From Candidatus Sumerlaeota bacterium (GTDB lineage Bacteria > Sumerlaeota > Sumerlaeia > SLMS01): 45,574 bases of DNA. The position numbers and the translations under genes were made by a program. How positions within the stretch are numbered: position 1 is the stretch's first letter; the number at the start of each line of letters is the position of its first letter. Under the pieces are notes generated by a model, which was not told the origin of the DNA, made no database searches, and saw only the letters and a program-made list of their open reading frames with translations. Of this stretch, positions 37,084-45,574 are shown in pieces. The DNA is taken from positions 1 to 45,574 of the forward strand of contig SLOM01000150.1 of assembly GCA_007132505.1 (NCBI GenBank), read 5' to 3'.

Positions 37084-37719
37084 TCACGCCTGCGGGGCGA
37101 GGACGGTGCCGAACCCGTCCCTGACCACCATCCGCGAGGCCCGGAAGCGCTGCGCCTCGATGATGGTCTTCATGTTCTCGATGGTTTCCGGCAGGTCGCG
37201 GTTGACGAGGATGTAGTCGTACTGGTCCGCCATGCGGACCTCGCCGCGTGCGTTTTCGAGGCGGCGCTGGATGGCCTCTTCGCTGTCCTGCCCGCGGCCA
37301 CGGAGGCGCTTCTCGAGTGTGGCCATGGAGGGGGGCAGGATGAAGATGGTCGTGCAGTCCCGGACCATCTTGTGCAGGCGCATGGAGCCCTGCACATCGA
37401 GGTCGAGGATGACGTCCTTGCCTGCTTCGAGCTTTGAGTCCACCTCCTCGCGCGGCGTCCCGTAGTAGTTGCCATGCACCTCGGCGTACTCGTAGAAGCC
37501 GTCCTCCTCGACGAGCTGTTTGAACTGCTCGATGGTGTAGAAGTGGTACTCGCGCCCGTCCTCCTCGCCCTCGCGGGGCTCCCGGGTGGTGGCGCTGATG
37601 GAGTAATCGAGGGAGGAGTCCGCCTCGAGCAGCGCACGGATGATGGTGGACTTGCCGCCACCGCTGGGTGCCGAGACGACAATCAGCATCCCGGTGCGTT
37701 TCAGTTCGAATTCGATCAC
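37084..37719 (-). CDS. gmk: Guanylate kinase
   Basis: VVSAPSGGGKST, SISATTREPREGEEDGREYHF, EYAEVHGNYYGT, FILPPS. Confidence 0.97.
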   Translation of the reverse strand: MIEFELKRTGMLIVVSAPSGGGKSTIIRALLEADSSLDYSISATTREPREGEEDGREYHFYTIEQFKQLVEEDGFYEYAEVHGNYYGTPREEVDSKLEAGKDVILDLDVQGSMRLHKMVRDCTTIFILPPSMATLEKRLRGRGQDSEEAIQRRLENARGEVRMADQYDYILVNRDLPETIENMKTIIEAQRFRASRMVVRDGFGTVLAPQA

Positions 37720-37754
37720 GGCGTGTCTTCCCCCGGTCCCTTCAGGCTGATGAC

Positions 37755-37784
37755 AATGTCGGGACTGGCGGGCGGAGGTGTCAA
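37755..37784 (-). promoter_or_regulatory. Putative sigma70 promoter of gmk(-coaBC)
   Basis: TTGACA-N18-GACATT, 35 nt upstream of the GTG start. Confidence 0.45.
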
Positions 37785-37845
37785 GCGATGCGCCGGGGCG
37801 GCAACCCCCTTGCTCCCGGGCTGGAGCGGACGACAGGGTTCCCCC

Positions 37846-39777
37846 ATGAGCACGAGTGCCCCCGTCCTGACCGCGCTTTCCCTTTCCAAGAGTTACCTCG
37901 AACGCCCCGTGCTGGAGGACGTGTCGTTCTCGATCCACGAGGGGGAACGGGTGGCGCTGCTCGGTGCGAACGGGTCGGGGAAGTCCACACTCCTTGGCAT
38001 CGTGGCGGGCACGGTACGGCCCGAGGGCGGCGAGGTGCGCTTCCGGCGCGAGCTGGCGGTCTCCCGGCTCCTGCAGGAGGACAGCCTGCCTCGGGAGTGG
38101 ACCATCGCCAAGGCGCTGGGCTCCGCCTTCGAGCACGTCCACCGGCTGGAGGAGGAGTTGGACCGGGTGCATCACGAGCTGGAGGCAGCACCGGGTGAGG
38201 AGGCGGGCCGGCTGCTGCAGCGGCAGGGCGAATTGCAGGAGCGCCTGCTTGCCCACGACCCGCACACCATGGAGTCCCGCAAGCAGGAGGCGATGAACGC
38301 CCTCGGCATTCCGCCGGAGGAGCGGGTCCTCGGCGAGCTGTCAGGCGGGGAACTGCGCCGGGTGGACCTCTGCCGCGTGCTGCTCGAGGAGCCGGACCTG
38401 CTGCTTCTCGACGAGCCGACGAACCATCTCGACGCCGAGACCCTCGACTGGCTGGAGGACTTCCTCGCGCGCTTCCGCGGCACCGTTCTCTTCGTCACGC
38501 ACGACCGGTACTTCCTCGACCGGGTGGCGACACGACTGCTCGAGCTTCACCGCGGCCGGGTGAAGTCCTACCCGGGGAACTACAGTGACTATATGGTGGC
38601 CAAGGCCCGGGAGGCGGAACAGGCGGAGCGCGCGGAGGGCACGCGCCGCAACCTTGTCCGGCGCGAGCTCGAATGGCTGCGGCGTCAGCCCAAGGCGCGC
38701 ACCACCAAATCCAAGGCCCGCGTTGACGCGGCAGAGGGGCTGATCTCCGCGGCACCTCCCCCGCCGGACGGAACGATGCAGCTGCTCATTCCCTCCGGTC
38801 CGCGCCTCGGCAAGACATTGCTCGAAGCGGAGGATGTATCCTACGCCATCGGCGGCAGGACACTGGTGCGGGACTTCACCTTCGTCCTCGGCCCGCGGGA
38901 CCGCGTGGGTGTGGTCGGCCGGAATGGACTCGGGAAGACGACTCTTCTTCGCCTGCTCATGAAGGACCTGGAGCCACAGCAGGGTACCATCCACCACGGC
39001 AAGAGCCTCAAATTCGTCTATGCGGATCAGGCGCGAGAGACGCTCGACCCGGACGCGACGGTGCTGGCGGAGGTGGCCGGAGACCTTGAATACGTCACCA
39101 TCGGCGGTCAGCGGATCGGCTTCCGCGGTTGGCTGGAGCGCTTCCTTTTCGATCAGCAGACCGCCAACATGCCCATCCGCCTGCTCAGCGGAGGCGAGCG
39201 CAACCGCGTCCAACTGGCCAGGATGCTGCGCGAGGGCGGGAACGTGGTGGTACTGGACGAGCCGACGAACGACCTGGACCTGCAGACGCTGCGCGTGCTG
39301 GAGGAGGCGCTGGTGCGGTTCGAGGGCTGCGCCTTCGTTGTCTCCCACGACAGGTACTTCCTGGATCGCGTGGCGACGCGCATCATCGGCTTCCGCGGGG
39401 ATGGGCGTATAGACGTCGTGGAGGGCAACTACCGCGATTACCGCGCGTATCTGGCACGTACCGCAGCCGGGGAGGAATCCGCACCGTCAAGGCCGCGCGG
39501 GGACAGGACACGCGAACAGGCCAGCGCCCCCCGGTCCGCCTCCGCCACACGCAAGCTCAGCTACAAGGAGCAACTCGAGTTCGACTCGCTGGAGGACCGT
39601 ATCCTGGAGGCGGAGGGGCGCGTGGAGGAGTTGACGGCGCTGCTGGAGGACCCGGAAACGCACCGGAGCCGCCCGGCGGAGGAGGTGGCGGAACTGGGCC
39701 GCGAGCTGGAGGCAGCAAAGGCAAGCGTGGATGAGCTGTACGAGCGCTGGGCGGAACTGGGCACCCGCGCCCGCTGA
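37846..39777 (+). CDS. ABC-F family ATPase (Uup-like)
   Basis: Two ABC cassettes (GANGSGKST/LSGGE/LLDEPTNHLD and GRNGLGKTT/LSGGE/VLDEPTNDLD), linker ELEWLRRQPKARTTKSKAR, C-terminal RKLSYKEQ...YERWAEL coiled coil, no TM segments. Confidence 0.93.
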   Translation: MSTSAPVLTALSLSKSYLERPVLEDVSFSIHEGERVALLGANGSGKSTLLGIVAGTVRPEGGEVRFRRELAVSRLLQEDSLPREWTIAKALGSAFEHVHRLEEELDRVHHELEAAPGEEAGRLLQRQGELQERLLAHDPHTMESRKQEAMNALGIPPEERVLGELSGGELRRVDLCRVLLEEPDLLLLDEPTNHLDAETLDWLEDFLARFRGTVLFVTHDRYFLDRVATRLLELHRGRVKSYPGNYSDYMVAKAREAEQAERAEGTRRNLVRRELEWLRRQPKARTTKSKARVDAAEGLISAAPPPPDGTMQLLIPSGPRLGKTLLEAEDVSYAIGGRTLVRDFTFVLGPRDRVGVVGRNGLGKTTLLRLLMKDLEPQQGTIHHGKSLKFVYADQARETLDPDATVLAEVAGDLEYVTIGGQRIGFRGWLERFLFDQQTANMPIRLLSGGERNRVQLARMLREGGNVVVLDEPTNDLDLQTLRVLEEALVRFEGCAFVVSHDRYFLDRVATRIIGFRGDGRIDVVEGNYRDYRAYLARTAAGEESAPSRPRGDRTREQASAPRSASATRKLSYKEQLEFDSLEDRILEAEGRVEELTALLEDPETHRSRPAEEVAELGRELEAAKASVDELYERWAELGTRAR

Positions 39778-40365: not shown

Positions 40366-41078
40366 GACTCCCCCTTTGCAACAGGGCAATGAAGCGCCTT
40401 GGCGTCCTCCACCATTAGGCGGCGCAGTGCGAGGGCGAGGGCTTCCGGATCCGTCTCCCCGTCCGTCAGGCTGAACTCCCTCAGGCGGATGGACACTCGC
40501 GAGAAGGGCAGCGGCAGGAAGAGCCTGTCCCACGACCCGAACCGAATGAACCACCGGCAGCCCACGGCGATGCTCACCACTCTGGCGCGCGACGCCCGCC
40601 CGATGCGCACGAAGCCGGGTTTCGGCACTGCTGCCGGGCCGCGCGGTCCGTCCACGGCCAGCAGCCCCACGTGCCCGGACTCGATTTCGTTGACGAGAGC
40701 AAGGGAGCCGGCAACGGCGCGGCTCTTCGAGGAACCCTTCACCACCCGCAGCCCGATGGCCTGAATGGCCGCGTCCAGCACGAGGCCATCACGGCTGGGA
40801 CTTGTCATGACGCAGGCCTCCCGTCCCAGCGCGCGGGCAATGGCCGCGTACGGCATGAGGGCGAAGAACATCCCGTGCCAGCAGAGGACGAGCAGCCGGT
40901 CGTTCTCCCGCAGCAAGCGCCGCAGTTCCTCCGCACCGGCCGGGTCCAAGCGCCACGTGCGCACCAGCAATCTCAGCAGCAGCAGGCCCACGGGAAGCAG
41001 CGCATGGGTGATGAAGGCGAACTTGACGGCCCGCCAGGAGGTGCGCTTCTTGATGGGTGCGGCCGCGGGTGGTGTCAT
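40362..41078 (-). CDS. DUF374 / lysophospholipid acyltransferase-like protein
   Basis: LCWHG, TSPSRDG, VKGSS, AVDGPRGP, SWDRLFLPLPFS. Confidence 0.88.
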   Translation of the reverse strand: MTPPAAAPIKKRTSWRAVKFAFITHALLPVGLLLLRLLVRTWRLDPAGAEELRRLLRENDRLLVLCWHGMFFALMPYAAIARALGREACVMTSPSRDGLVLDAAIQAIGLRVVKGSSKSRAVAGSLALVNEIESGHVGLLAVDGPRGPAAVPKPGFVRIGRASRARVVSIAVGCRWFIRFGSWDRLFLPLPFSRVSIRLREFSLTDGETDPEALALALRRLMVEDAKALHCPVAKGES

Positions 41079-43180
41079 TCGTACAGACGGCGCTCCTCGA
41101 GCCTCGGATCAAGCGGGACAAGCGAGGGGCTCAAGTCCAGGCCGGGCAGGAATCCCGCCTCAAGGGCAATGGGCAGGCGCTTTCGGGGAGTAGGCCGGCG
41201 GAGTTCCTCCCGCACGGATTGGGTGCGCCGCAGCGGCTCCATCAGCGCCAGCACGCGGCCGAGCTGCTCCTCCGTGAGGGGCATCTCGATGCGCCGGCCG
41301 GTGCGCCGGTCCTCGTAGCTGTATGCGCCGTATCGCAGCACGGCCAGACCATCCCGTCCGACTTCCCCCGTCCTGCGGCTTCCATCGAGCAAGTCCGGAT
41401 TCAGGTCCAGCGCATCCTCTGCCGCGAGCTGTGGCCAAGCCAGCAGCTCGCTTCTGTCTATAAGAAGGATTGTGTCGGCCTCCCGGCGCGCCTCGCGGAG
41501 GCTTGCCAGGACACGGTCCCGCCGGCGGTAGTCCGGCCATGCGTTGAGCAGGCGTTCGTAGGCGCGGAGGGCGAGCTCGGGAGTGGGTGCGTTGTCGCCC
41601 TGCCGTTCGAGGTTCCGCGCGGCACGGTGGCGCATGCGCTGCGTACGTCGTTCATTGCCGAGCCGTTCGTATAGATTTGCGGCATCCACATAGCGCGCCT
41701 CGCGCCGGAGTGCCGTGGCCAGACGCCCGCCCCACCATTCCCCCTGTGGAGTGAGGAACCAGTCCGGGTCCACTCCTGCGGCGGCGTGGGGAAACTCCGG
41801 TTCGGGGAAGGGGTCCTGAAACGGCAGGAACAGCAGCCGCGCCAGCCAATCGGTCAGGAACAGGCCCCGGGCGCGCTCGAACGTGGTCGTGCGGCGCATG
41901 CGCGCCTCCTCCGCAGTAAGGGAGCGCTCGAGCACCAGGGGATCGCGTGCATGGAGGATATACCCCCACCAGCGCCTGTTGACCGCGCGGTTGGCCTCGC
42001 GCAAGGCGGGGACGGGATCATATTCGGGCCGCTGAAGGATGTCCGCGGCACGTTCCGGCCAGCCGCCCCGGGCCAGTCGGCCCTCCTCAAGCCTCTGCAG
42101 GTAGGCTGCCGCGAGGGAGAGATTTCCTTCCGCCTGCGCCACGCCCGCCTCCGCTGCCAGCACGGCCGGAAGCACCGGCGAGCCGGGATGGTTGCGCTGG
42201 AAGTCCGCCGCGGCCCGCCGGAAGGGAGGCAGATCGTCCGCGTATTCACGCAGGATCAGGTGACGCACGATGTCCCGGTAGGCGCCGAACTCCGCGGTGG
42301 AACCGAAGGTCTCAGCTCCCTCGGCGACTTCCAGCGAGCGCGCCCGGAGTTCCCTTGCCGCGGCGAACCGGCGGAGTGCGTCCCGGTGACCGTCGCGCCG
42401 GATCCTGTCCCAATCCTGGAGCTGGCGTTCGCGCTCGTACCAAAAGACCGCCGCCCAATCCCGGCCCTGACCAGCCGCCCGCTGCGCATTCTGCCGCGCC
42501 TGCAGGGCCGAAGTCCGCGTGCGCTGGCCCGGCGAAGCATCGAGCACGCTGCGGGCCCTGTCCCGAGAAGGTCCTCCTGCCTCCACGGCAGCCGCCTCGC
42601 GGGCCAGGAAGAGCTCCCTGCGTTGCTCCGGGGTAAGGTACTGACGGCCGACGATGAGGTGTTCCGCCGCGTCGAAGGGCAGCGACAACAGGGGAAATAT
42701 CTGTCCCTGCGCGAGCGAGGTGACCGGGTTCAGCACGGCGTTGACGTTTCGCTGGAGCGACGCATACCGCCGGTCGGCCCGTGCTTCGAGGAAGCGCTGC
42801 CGGGGCTCCTCGCGCCGCAACATCTCCTCAAGGTTGCGCGTGACCTGGCTTCGCCGATAGCCGGAGAGGGTGTCGCGCTTTTCACGCACGGTGGGGAGCG
42901 GCCTGTCCACCGAGACGGAGAGCGTGGCAATGGCGCTCGAGATGGGAAGGGGAACGGTCCGCGCCGTGCGGGCCGCGTCCTCCAGGTCGCGGCGCTCCTC
43001 CGCCACATCGCGAACGGCCTCGGCATCGCCAAGGATGGCGGCCCGGAGCGCGCGCTGGACCTGCTGCTCGGTGCGGGTGAGCGCCGGCTCCTCCGGCTCC
43101 GCAACTACCGCCGTATAGACGAAGGGGGCCATCAGCAACAGCAACAGAAGCGTCGTGGGGACAGGACCAGCACGCATCAT
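41075..43180 (-). CDS. Large exported alpha-helical (TPR-like) hypothetical protein
   Basis: Signal peptide TTLLLLLLMAPFVYTAVVA, Ala/Arg-rich helical repeats (AAAYLQRL, AANLYERL, ALRAYERLL), 4-nt overlaps with both neighbours. Confidence 0.8.
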   Translation of the reverse strand: MMRAGPVPTTLLLLLLMAPFVYTAVVAEPEEPALTRTEQQVQRALRAAILGDAEAVRDVAEERRDLEDAARTARTVPLPISSAIATLSVSVDRPLPTVREKRDTLSGYRRSQVTRNLEEMLRREEPRQRFLEARADRRYASLQRNVNAVLNPVTSLAQGQIFPLLSLPFDAAEHLIVGRQYLTPEQRRELFLAREAAAVEAGGPSRDRARSVLDASPGQRTRTSALQARQNAQRAAGQGRDWAAVFWYERERQLQDWDRIRRDGHRDALRRFAAARELRARSLEVAEGAETFGSTAEFGAYRDIVRHLILREYADDLPPFRRAAADFQRNHPGSPVLPAVLAAEAGVAQAEGNLSLAAAYLQRLEEGRLARGGWPERAADILQRPEYDPVPALREANRAVNRRWWGYILHARDPLVLERSLTAEEARMRRTTTFERARGLFLTDWLARLLFLPFQDPFPEPEFPHAAAGVDPDWFLTPQGEWWGGRLATALRREARYVDAANLYERLGNERRTQRMRHRAARNLERQGDNAPTPELALRAYERLLNAWPDYRRRDRVLASLREARREADTILLIDRSELLAWPQLAAEDALDLNPDLLDGSRRTGEVGRDGLAVLRYGAYSYEDRRTGRRIEMPLTEEQLGRVLALMEPLRRTQSVREELRRPTPRKRLPIALEAGFLPGLDLSPSLVPLDPRLEERRLYE

Positions 43181-43806
43181 CCGCCCTCCCCGCCCCGGGT
43201 CTCCCGGATCAGCCGGGCGTCATCCTCCGAGAGGAATCCCGCCTGGACCATCTCCTCAAGTTCAAAATCGGACTTTGCAGCAAGGGGGGCGAGCCGGCGG
43301 GGCAGGCTCTTCTCCAGACTGGCGGGCGCCTTCGGAGGGGTACTCTCCTCTGCGGCTTTCGTGCGGGGTGATGGTTGCTGCTTCTGCTCCGGCGCGGCGG
43401 GTTCTTGTCCGGGGGCCTGCTGCGCCTCCGCTTCCTTTTCCCGGCGTGCTGTGGCTTCCATCTCTGCCAGTTGGAGGGCGGCTTCCGCCTTGGGGGGGAG
43501 CTTCCGTGCCGCTTCCTGGGCCTCGGTGCGCTCAAGGTATTGCTTGGTCATGGCGCGGCGGACTGCCTTCAGCTCCTCCTCGGTGAGCTGGCCGGAGGTG
43601 CGCAGCTTGTCGAGGTCGCTCGGGGAGATGCCAAAGGGGAGTTCGATCCTCTCCGTGCGGCGGGAGAAGTAGTGACGGAGTACGCGCGCCACCACGAAGA
43701 GGAGAATGACCGCCACCGCAACGGCGATGGCATAGATCATCAGCGTCTGTACATCCTCGTGAACGAGGAAGGTGGTGAACGCCAGGGCGCCGGCGGAAGG
43801 ATTCAC
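43177..43806 (-). CDS. Single-pass membrane protein with two SHOCT-like motifs
   Basis: TM IYAIAVAVAVILLFVVA followed by RVLRHYFSRR. DLDKLRTSGQLTEEELKAVR and ELEEMVQAGFLSEDDARLIR. Confidence 0.75.
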   Translation of the reverse strand: MNPSAGALAFTTFLVHEDVQTLMIYAIAVAVAVILLFVVARVLRHYFSRRTERIELPFGISPSDLDKLRTSGQLTEEELKAVRRAMTKQYLERTEAQEAARKLPPKAEAALQLAEMEATARREKEAEAQQAPGQEPAAPEQKQQPSPRTKAAEESTPPKAPASLEKSLPRRLAPLAAKSDFELEEMVQAGFLSEDDARLIRETRGGEGG

Positions 43807-43816
43807 CGGAAGGGCC

Positions 43817-45574
43817 TCAGGAAACGAAATACTTCTCCACCATTTCGGTGGCGAGTTCAGGCGTGATTTCGCTGCCGCCGAGCTCCTTCAGCGTGAGGAG
43901 CTGATTGAAGGCACCCTTGAGCTCACGCACGTTCGTGGCAAGCCGTTCCGCGAGCACTTCAAGCACCTCCTCGTCCAGTTCCACGCCGTGGCGCTTGGCC
44001 TCCTTGCCGAGGATGGCCAGCCGGGTTTCGAAATCGGGTGACTGTATATCCACGATGACACCCTGGCCGAAGCGGGACCGCAGCCGCATGTCAAGGTGGG
44101 CGATGTCCTTCGGGGGCCTGTCCGAGCTGACCACAATCTGGCGCCGCGCCTGGAAGAGCATGTTGAAGATGTGGAAGAACTCCTCCTGACTGCGTTCCTT
44201 TCCAGCGAGGAACTGCACGTCGTCCAGCAGGAGGACGTCCGCTTTGCGGTACTTGTTGCGGAAGGCGGTTGTCTTGTTCGTCTCGATGGCCTCCACCAGT
44301 TCCGTGGTGAAGTACTCGGTGCTTCCATAGACGATCCGGGTCTTGGGCTTCTGCTTGAGAAGCTCGTTGGCGATCGCATGCAGCAGGTGGGTCTTGCCGA
44401 GGCCCACGTCCGAGTAGAGGAAGAGCGGATTGCGGGCGGAGCCGGGCTGGCGGGCGACGGCGCGTGCCGTTGCGTAGGCGAAGTTGTTCTTCGAGCCCAC
44501 GACGAAGGAGTCGAAGTCGTACTCCTCCAGGATGCCAAGGCCCGGGGAATCCTCGGTACTTGCCGCGCGGGCGGCGGTAGCGGAGGCCACGGCGGCCCCG
44601 GCCGGAGAGGCGTCCAGCAGGTCCTCCAGCTCACGGTACTCGGCAAGGGCTTCGTCCTTCTTGCCCATGTTGTCGAGCAGCCGCGCCTTGGCGCGCCGGG
44701 CACGTACATGGCGGGAATCCTCGGCAAGCACCCCGTCCAGCAGCTTGAGGGCCTTCTCGTTCTTCTTCTTTCCGGTGAGGAGGCCTGCGAGTTCCACGGT
44801 TTCCGTCAGCGCCTCGTCGTGCCTTCCCTGGGACTCGAGTTCCGTTATGAGGAGTTGGCGCGGCTCGGGCGCCTCGGGCTTGAGGGCGGCTGCCTCGCGA
44901 AGCGCGGCCAGCACACCGGCCTGGTCGCCCTCCTCCTGCAGGACGGCGGCGAGCCGGCGCAGCTCTGCCATGGCGTCCTCGGTCCGCCCGGCCCTCCGCA
45001 TCAGGGCGACGATGTGCCGCCGGGCCTCATGATTGCCGGGCTCCTCCTCCAGCACCTCGCGCAGAATCTCGACAGCCTGATCCGGCCGGCCCGCCTCCTC
45101 GTGCACGGTGGCCATTCTGCGCAGGAGCTGGTGTGCCTCGTCCTCCCGTCCCATGTCGCGGAGCAGGGCGACGTGGGCGCGGTTGACCTTCTCGTTGCCG
45201 GGGTCCAAGGCGTGCATTTCCTCGAACGCGGCCGCGGCGTCCTCCAGTTTCCGTGCCTTCTGGAGATGCTTGGCCAGGGCGAGGTACTGATCCATCGCCT
45301 CGGGCAGCCGGCCGGCATCCTGCAGGGCGCCGGTCAGCCCGGCCCGCAGCGGGATGCTCTCCGGTGCCTGCTTCACGGCCTCTTCGTATAGACGGAGGAC
45401 CTCTTCCTTGTCTCCGCGTTCCTCGTGCAGTTCGATGACCGCCTGCCATTCGGCCACGGCCTCCTCGCTGCGCCCGGCGGTCCGGTAGAGCGCCGCGAGG
45501 GCCTTGCGGAAGTCCGGCAGGCGGGCGTTCGTCTCGATCCAGCCCCGGAGCAGCCGGATCTTCTTCTCCGTCTC
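43817..45574 (-). CDS. TPR-repeat protein fused to a C-terminal DnaA-type AAA+ domain, lacking DnaA domain IV (5' end lies beyond the window)
   Basis: Frame is open to base 45574. TPR helices, then an Ala-rich linker, then YDFDSFVVGSKN, NPLFLYSDVGLGKTHLLHAI, LLLDDVQFL, KERSQEEFFH, SSDRPP, RLRSRF, NVRELKGA, and a stop about 30 aa later. Confidence 0.92.
   Translation of the reverse strand, partial: ETEKKIRLLRGWIETNARLPDFRKALAALYRTAGRSEEAVAEWQAVIELHEERGDKEEVLRLYEEAVKQAPESIPLRAGLTGALQDAGRLPEAMDQYLALAKHLQKARKLEDAAAAFEEMHALDPGNEKVNRAHVALLRDMGREDEAHQLLRRMATVHEEAGRPDQAVEILREVLEEEPGNHEARRHIVALMRRAGRTEDAMAELRRLAAVLQEEGDQAGVLAALREAAALKPEAPEPRQLLITELESQGRHDEALTETVELAGLLTGKKKNEKALKLLDGVLAEDSRHVRARRAKARLLDNMGKKDEALAEYRELEDLLDASPAGAAVASATAARAASTEDSPGLGILEEYDFDSFVVGSKNNFAYATARAVARQPGSARNPLFLYSDVGLGKTHLLHAIANELLKQKPKTRIVYGSTEYFTTELVEAIETNKTTAFRNKYRKADVLLLDDVQFLAGKERSQEEFFHIFNMLFQARRQIVVSSDRPPKDIAHLDMRLRSRFGQGVIVDIQSPDFETRLAILGKEAKRHGVELDEEVLEVLAERLATNVRELKGAFNQLLTLKELGGSEITPELATEMVEKYFVS

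Follow-up and report, generated by a model that had tools for sequence, protein, structure and literature searches.

Sumerlaeota genomes encode, beside an ordinary chromosomal replication initiator DnaA, a second protein of the DnaA family in which a zinc-binding head of the DnaG primase type, about 1,000 residues of tetratricopeptide repeats (TPR) and a variable linker are followed by DnaA domain III with its lid, and then by the stop codon. The protein was recognized at the end of a 45,574-nucleotide contig of a Candidatus Sumerlaeota bacterium (SLOM01000150.1 of assembly GCA_007132505.1), which was analyzed as a whole and is called the window below; the protein itself is referred to as the fusion. 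An earlier sequence-only reading, made from the letters of the window without database searches, had proposed that a TPR array is joined here to a DnaA ATPase, and the fusion proved to be genuine and conserved across the phylum. The functional statements that we make about it are drawn from its sequence. They suggest an ATP-switched oligomerizer of the DnaA type on single-stranded DNA (ssDNA), blind to DnaA boxes and acting with DnaA at initiation, a reading that we hold tentatively and with somewhat less than even confidence.

Architecture of the fusion gene

In the window the gene is a partial open reading frame (ORF) of 585 codons and a stop on the minus strand (43817..45574), which is open at the window end. 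The window constitutes an entire contig (C277) of an assembly of 303 contigs, and its last 121 bases recur exactly at the start of contig C4, a match that is unique among the contigs of the assembly. Across this overlap the reading frame extends 784 residues into C4, up to a methionine with a stop before it (L008:2-2473, minus strand, coordinates that include a 40-residue overlap). The complete protein thus has 1,369 residues, of which the window holds the C-terminal end, and the sequence-only reading had been right in supposing that the gene continues past the window. The join of C277 and C4 is correct, since a genome of the same genus carries the fusion in a single uninterrupted frame of 1,388 codons, a 1,369-residue protein on a 105-kb contig of another assembly (P0001) is 100% identical over the window's 585-residue piece, and contigs from independent runs extend past the window end. 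The TPR-ATPase junction (44159-45574) and the stop codon (43220-44186, 43351-43834 and 43771-43961) are crossed by DNA contigs that come from several independent runs, with no indels reported. A low-depth contig of run X6 omits 160 bases (44743 to 44904) in the TPR part; its shorter side measures just 21 letters.

All parts of the gene in the window lie on the minus strand. The C-terminal portion of the TPR array (44615..45574, residues 785-1104 of the full protein) is matched by TPR_19, TPR_14, TPR_2 and related families on about residues 25-320 of the 585-residue piece, and the whole array spans residues ~135 to 1104. An Ala-rich, poorly conserved linker follows (44528..44614; residues 1105-1133, or 321-349 of the piece), and then the AAA+ core of DnaA, domain IIIa (44048..44527), to which Bac_DnaA (PF00308) aligns with an E-value of 2.1e-65 on residues 350-509 of the piece and positions 3-162 of the 162 in the profile. 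The lid, domain IIIb (43820..44047), aligns with solved DnaA chains and matches Hda_lid weakly; the protein ends here, 76 residues past PF00308, with a TGA stop directly after the lid (43817..43819). Within domain III we located Walker A (SDVGLGKT, 44390-44413, with its Lys, Lys1178 of the full protein, at 44393-44395), the position equivalent to V211 of E. coli DnaA (44294-44296, within the motif ELVEA), Walker B (LDD, 44219-44227), the R245-equivalent position (44192-44194, within the motif KERSQEE), an SSD motif, SSD(R) (44120-44128), box VII (RLRSRF, 44069-44086, with the Arg finger Arg1285 at 44072-44074) and, in the lid, sensor II (TNVRE, 43922-43936, with Arg1334), the two E. coli equivalents having been placed by alignment. 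The succession of TPR helices, Ala-rich linker, DnaA domain III and stop that the sequence-only reading had described was borne out by Pfam and by the sequence, as was every motif it had listed.

Neither flanking domain of DnaA is present. Bac_DnaA_C (PF08299) is absent from the fusion, and its sole match in the entire genome lies on contig C227, as expected by the sequence-only reading for a protein with PF00308 and without PF08299. A search for DnaA_N (PF11638) that recovered the genome's DnaA at an E-value of 2.2e-15 gave no match in the two pieces of the fusion, and the DnaA model TIGR00362 aligns only at positions 86-338 of 437. Since it has no helix-turn-helix of domain IV, the protein would not read DnaA boxes.

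The length of the TPR array is nearly fixed, with 94 of 114 members at 1,300-1,399 residues and alignment occupancy of about 1.0 throughout; the linker belongs to the stretches of lower conservation and to the few places with gaps in the family alignment. Open frames are mostly of 1,360-1,450 codons, and length classes of ~1,360, ~1,750 and ~2,150 residues can be distinguished. The longer classes carry additional TPR sequence and occur mainly in certain families (f7, f13).

Similarity to DnaA and conservation of functional residues

Against solved structures, domain III of the fusion scored 258 bits with DnaA 8BTG/8BV3, 195 bits with 2Z4R and 169 bits with 1L8Q/2HCB, compared with 51 bits for Hda (5X06) and 35 bits for a DnaI-type loader. 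The family models agree: TIGR00362 (DnaA) gave 327.1 bits, under its equivalog cut-off of 343.9, and TIGR03420 (Hda) gave 102.1 bits, under its cut-off of 194.8. The sequence-only reading had judged the ATPase closer to DnaA than to Hda, and these scores uphold that judgement. Identity to the genome's own DnaA is 46% over 251 residues.

Residues were counted in 114 TPR-fusion proteins aligned with E. coli DnaA, for which we assume the E. coli numbering and residue roles, V211 and R245 being presumed ssDNA contacts. Lys178 and Thr179 of Walker A, Asp236 of Walker B, Asp269, Arg281 of box VII, the Arg finger Arg285 and Arg334 of sensor II are each present in 114/114 members, and Asp235 of Walker B in 112/114. 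The Val211 position is occupied by Ile in 59 and Val in 48 members, and the Arg245 position by Arg in 103 and Lys in 4. At the first glycine of Walker A the family has Ser (86 members), Ala (24) or Gly (4); the Ser is no defect, because it is also found in 15 of the 17 canonical DnaAs included from other phyla. More generally, 34 canonical DnaAs share 64 columns with a conservation of at least 90%, and at 50 of these columns no fewer than 90% of the fusion family have the same residue. The ATPase thus retains all the parts needed to bind ATP, to donate an Arg finger and to touch ssDNA.

Fixed differences from canonical DnaA are A153T, G186A, K309E and E337K. Position 309 is Glu in 86% of the fusions and Lys in 34/34 canonical DnaAs, and position 337 is Lys in 99% of the fusions and Glu in 34/34 canonical DnaAs. 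Both lie in the lid, where this reciprocal charge change could represent a swapped salt bridge or an altered contact surface. A strict clamp motif (QL[SDE]LF type) occurs nowhere in any of 93 full-length members, which extends to the family what the sequence-only reading had noted for the window's piece of the protein ahead of the ATPase, and a loose clamp motif is never conserved, being present at any one aligned column in at most 19/93 members.

Distribution, descent and the canonical DnaA

A single match to the fusion at E<=1e-80 was found in 64 of 75 Sumerlaeota genomes, including 39 of the 43 of high quality, and a canonical-length DnaA was matched as well in each of the 41 genomes examined for the fusion. 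One of the genomes that fall short of this threshold (G028) gives a full-length match of lower significance, at 2.3e-75. In another (G037) the 585-residue query did not detect the fusion, which does not prove its absence; a profile of the head returned a single TPR-only ORF of about 3,090 residues there. Identity among fusions is 79% within the genus, 45-52% within the family and 33-47% beyond. Because identity declines with taxonomic distance, the pattern is that of a vertically inherited core gene and not of a mobile or defence gene. A defence-system reading, in which TPR and a nucleoside triphosphatase would form a protein like the signal transduction ATPases with numerous domains (STAND), was considered and rejected: the gene occurs once per genome in nearly the whole phylum, its divergence follows taxonomy, and its ATPase is an AAA+ module of the DnaA clade. 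Also rejected was an apparent second-phylum fusion in a Fimbriimonadales record (L039), where residues 191-585 of the query had matched; the ORF is an ordinary DnaA of 483 residues.

The genome's canonical DnaA, on contig C227, has 514 residues with DnaA_N, Bac_DnaA and Bac_DnaA_C, in keeping with the sequence-only reading's view that the fusion is not the initiator itself. PF00308 matched in this genome only DnaA, the fusion and, weakly, a DnaC/IstB-like protein; no Hda-like gene was found by this search. The DnaC/IstB-like ATPase, which has 244 residues and bears a Cys cluster at its N-terminus, is encoded some 2 kb away from dnaA (L006:1252-1986, plus strand, corresponding to C227:14500-15234 of G000, the window's genome) and represents a putative helicase loader.

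A maximum-likelihood tree of 81 domain IIIs was computed with the quick search of IQ-TREE under LG+G4, sampling every third database member and rooting on a single distant outgroup, E. coli Hda, whose terminal branch measures 4.88. All 39 sampled fusion domains formed one clade (99 in the SH-like approximate likelihood ratio test, SH-aLRT) and all 16 Sumerlaeota DnaAs a separate one (SH-aLRT 96). The fusions grouped with DnaA and not with Hda, as the sequence-only reading had anticipated. Since the fusion domains form their own clade apart from the DnaAs of the phylum, the tree indicates an old duplication retained under selection rather than a recent truncation.

A primase-type head

Residues 1 to about 105 were predicted to adopt the zinc-binding fold of primase (AlphaFold2 model, mean predicted local distance difference test score (pLDDT) 83.5, and above 90 for residues 11-100). 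The best Foldseek matches to this model were the primase structures 1D0Q (E 4.3e-4, template modelling score 0.78 on the target, root-mean-square deviation 2.2 Å) and 2AU3 (E 2.8e-3), both with a probability of 1.00; the third match had an E-value of 0.46. At the sequence level the window organism's own head matches CHC2 (PF01807) with 13.8 bits (E 0.115), and the CHC2 model aligns over nearly its full length with the N-termini of 8/8 relatives at E<=0.12, reaching the 24.9-bit cut-off in 2/8. A profile built from 12 N-termini of the family (A1) recovered the genome's own DnaG at an E-value of 9.8e-10, and its best chain in the Protein Data Bank was the Aquifex primase 2AU3 (E 0.013).

The four CHC2 ligands are complete in 70 of the 93 full-length members. 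In the window's own family, which contributes the remaining 23, ligands 3 and 4 are lost and Cys replaces His at ligand 2; the window protein retains Cys43 and Cys46 only, with Ser and Met at positions 65 and 70. No TOPRIM polymerase domain comes after the head, and a complete DnaG is encoded separately in the genome. Because this DnaG possesses its own zinc ribbon (124 bits), we rejected the idea that the fusion provides one that the primase lacks.

A possible function with DnaA at initiation

In DnaA, the nucleotide face, Arg finger and ssDNA contacts of domain III permit ATP-dependent helical oligomers to form on ssDNA. The fusion may then be understood as a phylum-wide DnaA paralog in which domains I-II and IV would have been replaced by a zinc-binding head and a TPR scaffold of fixed length. 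Its complete domain III would bind ATP, the ATP state would allow head-to-tail assembly through the Arg finger, and ssDNA would be held on the initiator-specific helices, as in DnaA. ATP-dependent oligomerization and ssDNA binding are what we infer because the nucleotide and Arg-finger faces are invariant and the ssDNA-contact positions mostly kept, a retention that reflects strong selection. Since DnaA boxes would be unreadable to the protein, head and scaffold would have to bring it to its site of action. That site would most likely be the replication origin or a nascent fork, where the fusion might co-assemble with, or act on, the filament of ATP-DnaA and ssDNA and so tune initiation. The partnership with DnaA and the direction of its effect are a guess, one that appears the most economical because the ATPase has stayed nearer to DnaA than Hda or DnaC have, the head is of a replication type and no Hda-like gene was found. 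Within such a partnership the two intact oligomer faces make a pure filament cap unlikely, and a pure Arg-finger donor in the manner of Hda is less likely than a co-assembling partner because the fusion's own ATP site is intact.

The fusion's domain III was also modelled in complex with domain III of the genome's own DnaA, ATP and Mg, with alignments and ligands of our own. The prediction scored 0.50, against 0.00 for the best of three controls, with at least 89% agreement of contacts between runs and a partner pLDDT of at least 87, which is weak support. Of 80 solved complexes 58 reached the mark used, as did 2 of 110 mismatched pairs, counts that hold only roughly given these alignments and ligands; at scores of at most 0.60, it was passed by only 7 of the 80 solved complexes and by both of the passing mismatches. 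The predictor's memory of solved DnaA filaments may explain the pass. Of the sequence-only reading's proposal that the protein forms or joins ATP-DnaA filaments, the residues for forming oligomers are in place, and for the joining the one direct test was this weakly supportive prediction. Its suggestion of TPR control was incomplete, having missed the primase-type head, the ATPase-less paralogs of head and TPR, and the links to PilB and MshE set out below.

Paralogs, sister clades and genomic context

Several observations weigh against a role at initiation. The complex test itself is weak, and a test of this kind misleads in most cases where the proposal was not likely from the outset. Expression is hinted at only by short RNA-library contigs of one run within the fusion gene, and this library may hold DNA. 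A role of the head in reading a DNA template is doubtful in the window's own family, since the head retains only two of the four zinc ligands there. Moreover, nothing links the fusion to an origin. No DnaA-box cluster was detected: the window holds 2 matches with one mismatch, compared with 2.36 expected, none of them near the gene, and 9 kb of C4 hold 0. The gene dnaN lies on a different contig (C178), so that the sequence-only reading's statement that neither dnaN nor a box cluster is nearby stands. The conserved neighbours described below comprise membrane, secreted-looking, DUF374 and RsmD-like proteins and include no replication genes.

The head profile further identified two proteins of head and TPR in the same genome that lack an ATPase. 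One, of 480 residues with its CHC2 ligands intact (C177:6853-8412, that is L090, minus strand), is encoded immediately 5' of a PilB-like T2SSE ATPase (L090:5208-6812, minus strand). This order recurs in 14 of 24 loci of the 480-residue paralog, the own genome counted; nothing was found within the 1.5-kb flank in the remaining 10. A second, PilT-sized T2SSE gene often follows the PilB-like gene at these loci. The other paralog has at least 1,321 residues and is cut by a contig end (C102:7553-11516, or L091, plus strand). The ~3,090-residue TPR-only protein of the relative G037, mentioned above, carries the same head (L087:1827-11096, minus strand), and ORFs of about this size matched the TPR part of the fusion in many genomes. 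Likewise, the domain IIIs nearest to the fusion are joined to MshEN or T2SSE. The fusion clade groups (SH-aLRT 99) with six giants of ~1,870-1,994 residues (P0069, P0089, P0098, P0104, P0075, P0094), composed of MshEN, a DnaA ATPase, a long middle part and a second DnaA ATPase, and with a 601-residue protein of MshEN and DnaA ATPase from a Hydrogenedentota record (L049:1927-3729, plus strand). Domain IV is absent from all MshEN-headed sister proteins examined. The module of head and TPR appears to be a lineage-specific scaffold that stands beside ATPases or is fused to them, and because of the PilB-adjacent paralogs and the MshEN- and T2SSE-fused sister clades, its family may serve machines beyond the replisome.

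These findings are the ground for the strongest of the competing explanations, in which the scaffold family docks ATPases outside initiation and the DnaA-derived ATPase is an oligomerization or ssDNA module without a DnaA partner, for instance in a machine linked to type IV pili or secretion ATPases, in DNA uptake, in repair or in restart. Envelope-like conserved operon partners would suit it, as would P0192, in which Bac_DnaA is joined to T2SSE. We regard it as possible, if rather unlikely. The ATPase has stayed near canonical DnaA in its conserved columns, ssDNA-contact positions and structure scores, whereas modules recruited to unrelated work usually drift, as the scores of Hda and DnaC illustrate, and the head is a replication-type domain. 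MshEN is a sensor domain that binds cyclic di-GMP and occurs in many contexts, so that its presence need not mean pili, and the adjacency to PilB concerns a paralog and not the fusion gene.

Two genes directly downstream of the fusion appear to travel with it. The first (43177..43806, minus strand), starting 10 bases past the fusion stop, encodes 209 residues with one predicted membrane helix, hence a single-pass membrane protein, and an acidic low-complexity tail; no Pfam family matched at E<=0.001. The second (41075..43180, minus strand) overlaps it by 4 bases and encodes 701 residues with a signal-peptide-like start and no Pfam family. A DUF374 protein and then an RsmD-like methyltransferase follow on the same strand. 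Among the loci of 12 relatives, homologues hold the same positions and order for the 209-residue protein in 5, the 701-residue protein in 6, the DUF374 protein in 5 and the RsmD-like protein in 5. No terminator-like sites were found on the minus strand between the downstream genes. For the two neighbours without a family the Atlas gave TPR-like leads at no more than 0.80, under the counting level, the lead for the 701-residue protein being at 0.80. Upstream of the fusion lies leuS, held there in the same genus only, and just outside the conserved cluster a double ABC-ATPase of the ABC-F type is encoded on the plus strand (37474-39777, 767 residues, with ABC_tran_Xtn and ABC_tran_CTD).

Alternatives within replication

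A function with DnaA could also be inhibitory. As in regulatory inactivation of DnaA (RIDA), the fusion might dock on ATP-DnaA and trigger hydrolysis with its Arg finger, while head and scaffold, in place of the clamp motif, would connect it to the active replisome, for instance by way of primase or helicase. Like Hda, the protein combines a domain III with the lack of domain IV; its Arg finger is invariant, its head is of the primase type, no Hda homologue was found in the genome, and docking on DnaA domain III gained the weak support of the complex prediction. These similarities are set against a TIGR03420 score far under the cut-off, a tree that places the fusions with DnaA, and a strict clamp motif in none of the full-length members. 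E. coli Hda, moreover, reads Arg, Asn and Asp at the positions of the Walker A Lys, the second Walker B Asp and box VII Arg281, whereas the fusion keeps Walker A, Walker B, sensor II and most ssDNA contacts, which exceeds the needs of an Arg-finger donor. We therefore consider an Hda-like inactivator improbable.

Very unlikely is a helicase-loader-like protein in the style of DnaC or DnaI, escorting or loading the replicative helicase or primase. A zinc-binding head with a C-terminal AAA+ module of the initiator clade does resemble DnaI as we understand it, and weak matches were obtained to IstB_IS21 (28.8 bits) and to the DnaI model NF006505 (45.1 bits). The latter compares with a cut-off of 228, however, and the score for the IS21 helper ATPase of 50.5 with one of 200; structure scores and tree make the ATPase DnaA-type and not DnaC-type, the 244-residue DnaC/IstB-like protein is separately encoded near dnaA, and loaders contain nothing comparable to the 1,000-residue TPR spacer.

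A chimeric assembly, or the loss of domain IV from a canonical dnaA by frameshift or truncation in this metagenome-assembled genome, might be suspected from the division of the gene between two of 303 contigs, and was named by the sequence-only reading, together with homologues lacking the fusion, as what could undo its claim; the chance of such an artefact is negligible, given the same architecture in at least 114 database clusters and 64 of 75 Sumerlaeota genomes, the identical protein on the 105-kb contig of another assembly, the independent contigs spanning junction and stop codon, and the intact dnaA elsewhere. The fusion gene is neither a chimera nor a truncation, and the artefact reading is refuted.

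The reading of the fusion as a partner of DnaA can be carried one step further. In a two-component initiator, DnaA would read the origin while the box-blind paralog co-polymerizes on the melted strand and couples opening to the recruitment of primase or helicase, or times it; and DnaA ATPases without domain IV that carry sensor or scaffold domains (TPR, MshEN, T2SSE, tandem copies, zinc ribbons) would form an unrecognized class of initiation regulators in several phyla. We consider this wider proposal unlikely as a whole. In a profile search over 1.84 billion representatives the fusions ranked top; other forms without domain IV were found among the 150 best representatives, and some may be gene fragments. 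They include proteins of 585-697 residues with two Bac_DnaA domains (P0121, P0122 and P0124, the source of P0122 being labelled Gemmatimonadota), the already mentioned P0192 (806 residues, source label Thermoplasmata archaeon) and a protein of 1,348 residues with Bac_DnaA and a double zinc ribbon (P0179).

Novelty and relation to known systems

The sequence of the fusion is already in the records, and what is new is a conserved architecture of a DnaA-family AAA+ protein together with its distribution. We found no published description of either, in a search outside which lie supplementary files that may list the gene, and the searched passages of a comparative paper on Sumerlaeota (PMC8092238) contain neither 'TPR' nor 'tetratricopeptide'. 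Public names for the orthologues are 'tetratricopeptide repeat protein', 'DnaA/Hda family protein', 'AAA family ATPase' and 'chromosomal replication initiator protein DnaA'. The orthologue in a Candidatus Sumerlaea chitinivorans record (P0243 / P0014 cluster, 2,132 residues) was deposited as 'Chromosomal replication initiator protein DnaA', and the JGI names many members likewise. Naming fusions as DnaA can mislead origin prediction and gene counts in Sumerlaeota.

How DnaA is controlled is understood for a handful of model phyla, through Hda and RIDA, YabA, SirA and others; to our knowledge, nothing is known of it in most bacterial phyla. If the fusion works with DnaA, it would represent a new mode of regulating or extending the initiator filament and a natural tool that separates the ATP and ssDNA functions from box binding. 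If it works elsewhere, a DnaA ATPase would have been recruited as a general ATP-driven module for ssDNA or oligomerization.

Among known systems, DnaA itself (TIGR00362; 8BTG/8BV3, 2Z4R, 1L8Q/2HCB) has the complete domain III and lid in common with the fusion, which in contrast lacks domains I and IV, carries an N-terminal extension of 1,100 residues made of head and TPRs, forms its own clade, stays below the equivalog cut-off and shows the K309E / E337K charge swap in the lid. With the zinc-binding domain of DnaG (PF01807; 1D0Q, 2AU3) it shares the fold of the head, and most members keep all four ligands; in DnaG, however, that domain is followed by the TOPRIM polymerase domain, whereas in the fusion it is followed by TPRs, and the window's family is without the full ligand set. 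The loaders DnaI and DnaC also place an AAA+ module of the initiator clade at the C-terminus, and DnaI has a zinc-binding N-terminal domain; the fusion differs in its DnaA-type ATPase and huge TPR array. HdaB derives from the domain IV side of DnaA and not from domain III and, as we understand it, has no ATPase, TPRs or zinc head, in contrast to the fusion. HdaB (bioRxiv 10.1101/712307; PMC7049699) is a short DnaA-related regulator of initiation in Caulobacter, and so a DnaA-derived fragment that regulates instead of initiating, as the fusion may be. Hda/HdaA (TIGR03420; 5X06, 3BOS, 3SC3) and the fusion are both DnaA-family AAA+ proteins without domain IV that carry an Arg finger and coexist with DnaA, but the fusion has no clamp motif, keeps its nucleotide site intact and is about six times longer.

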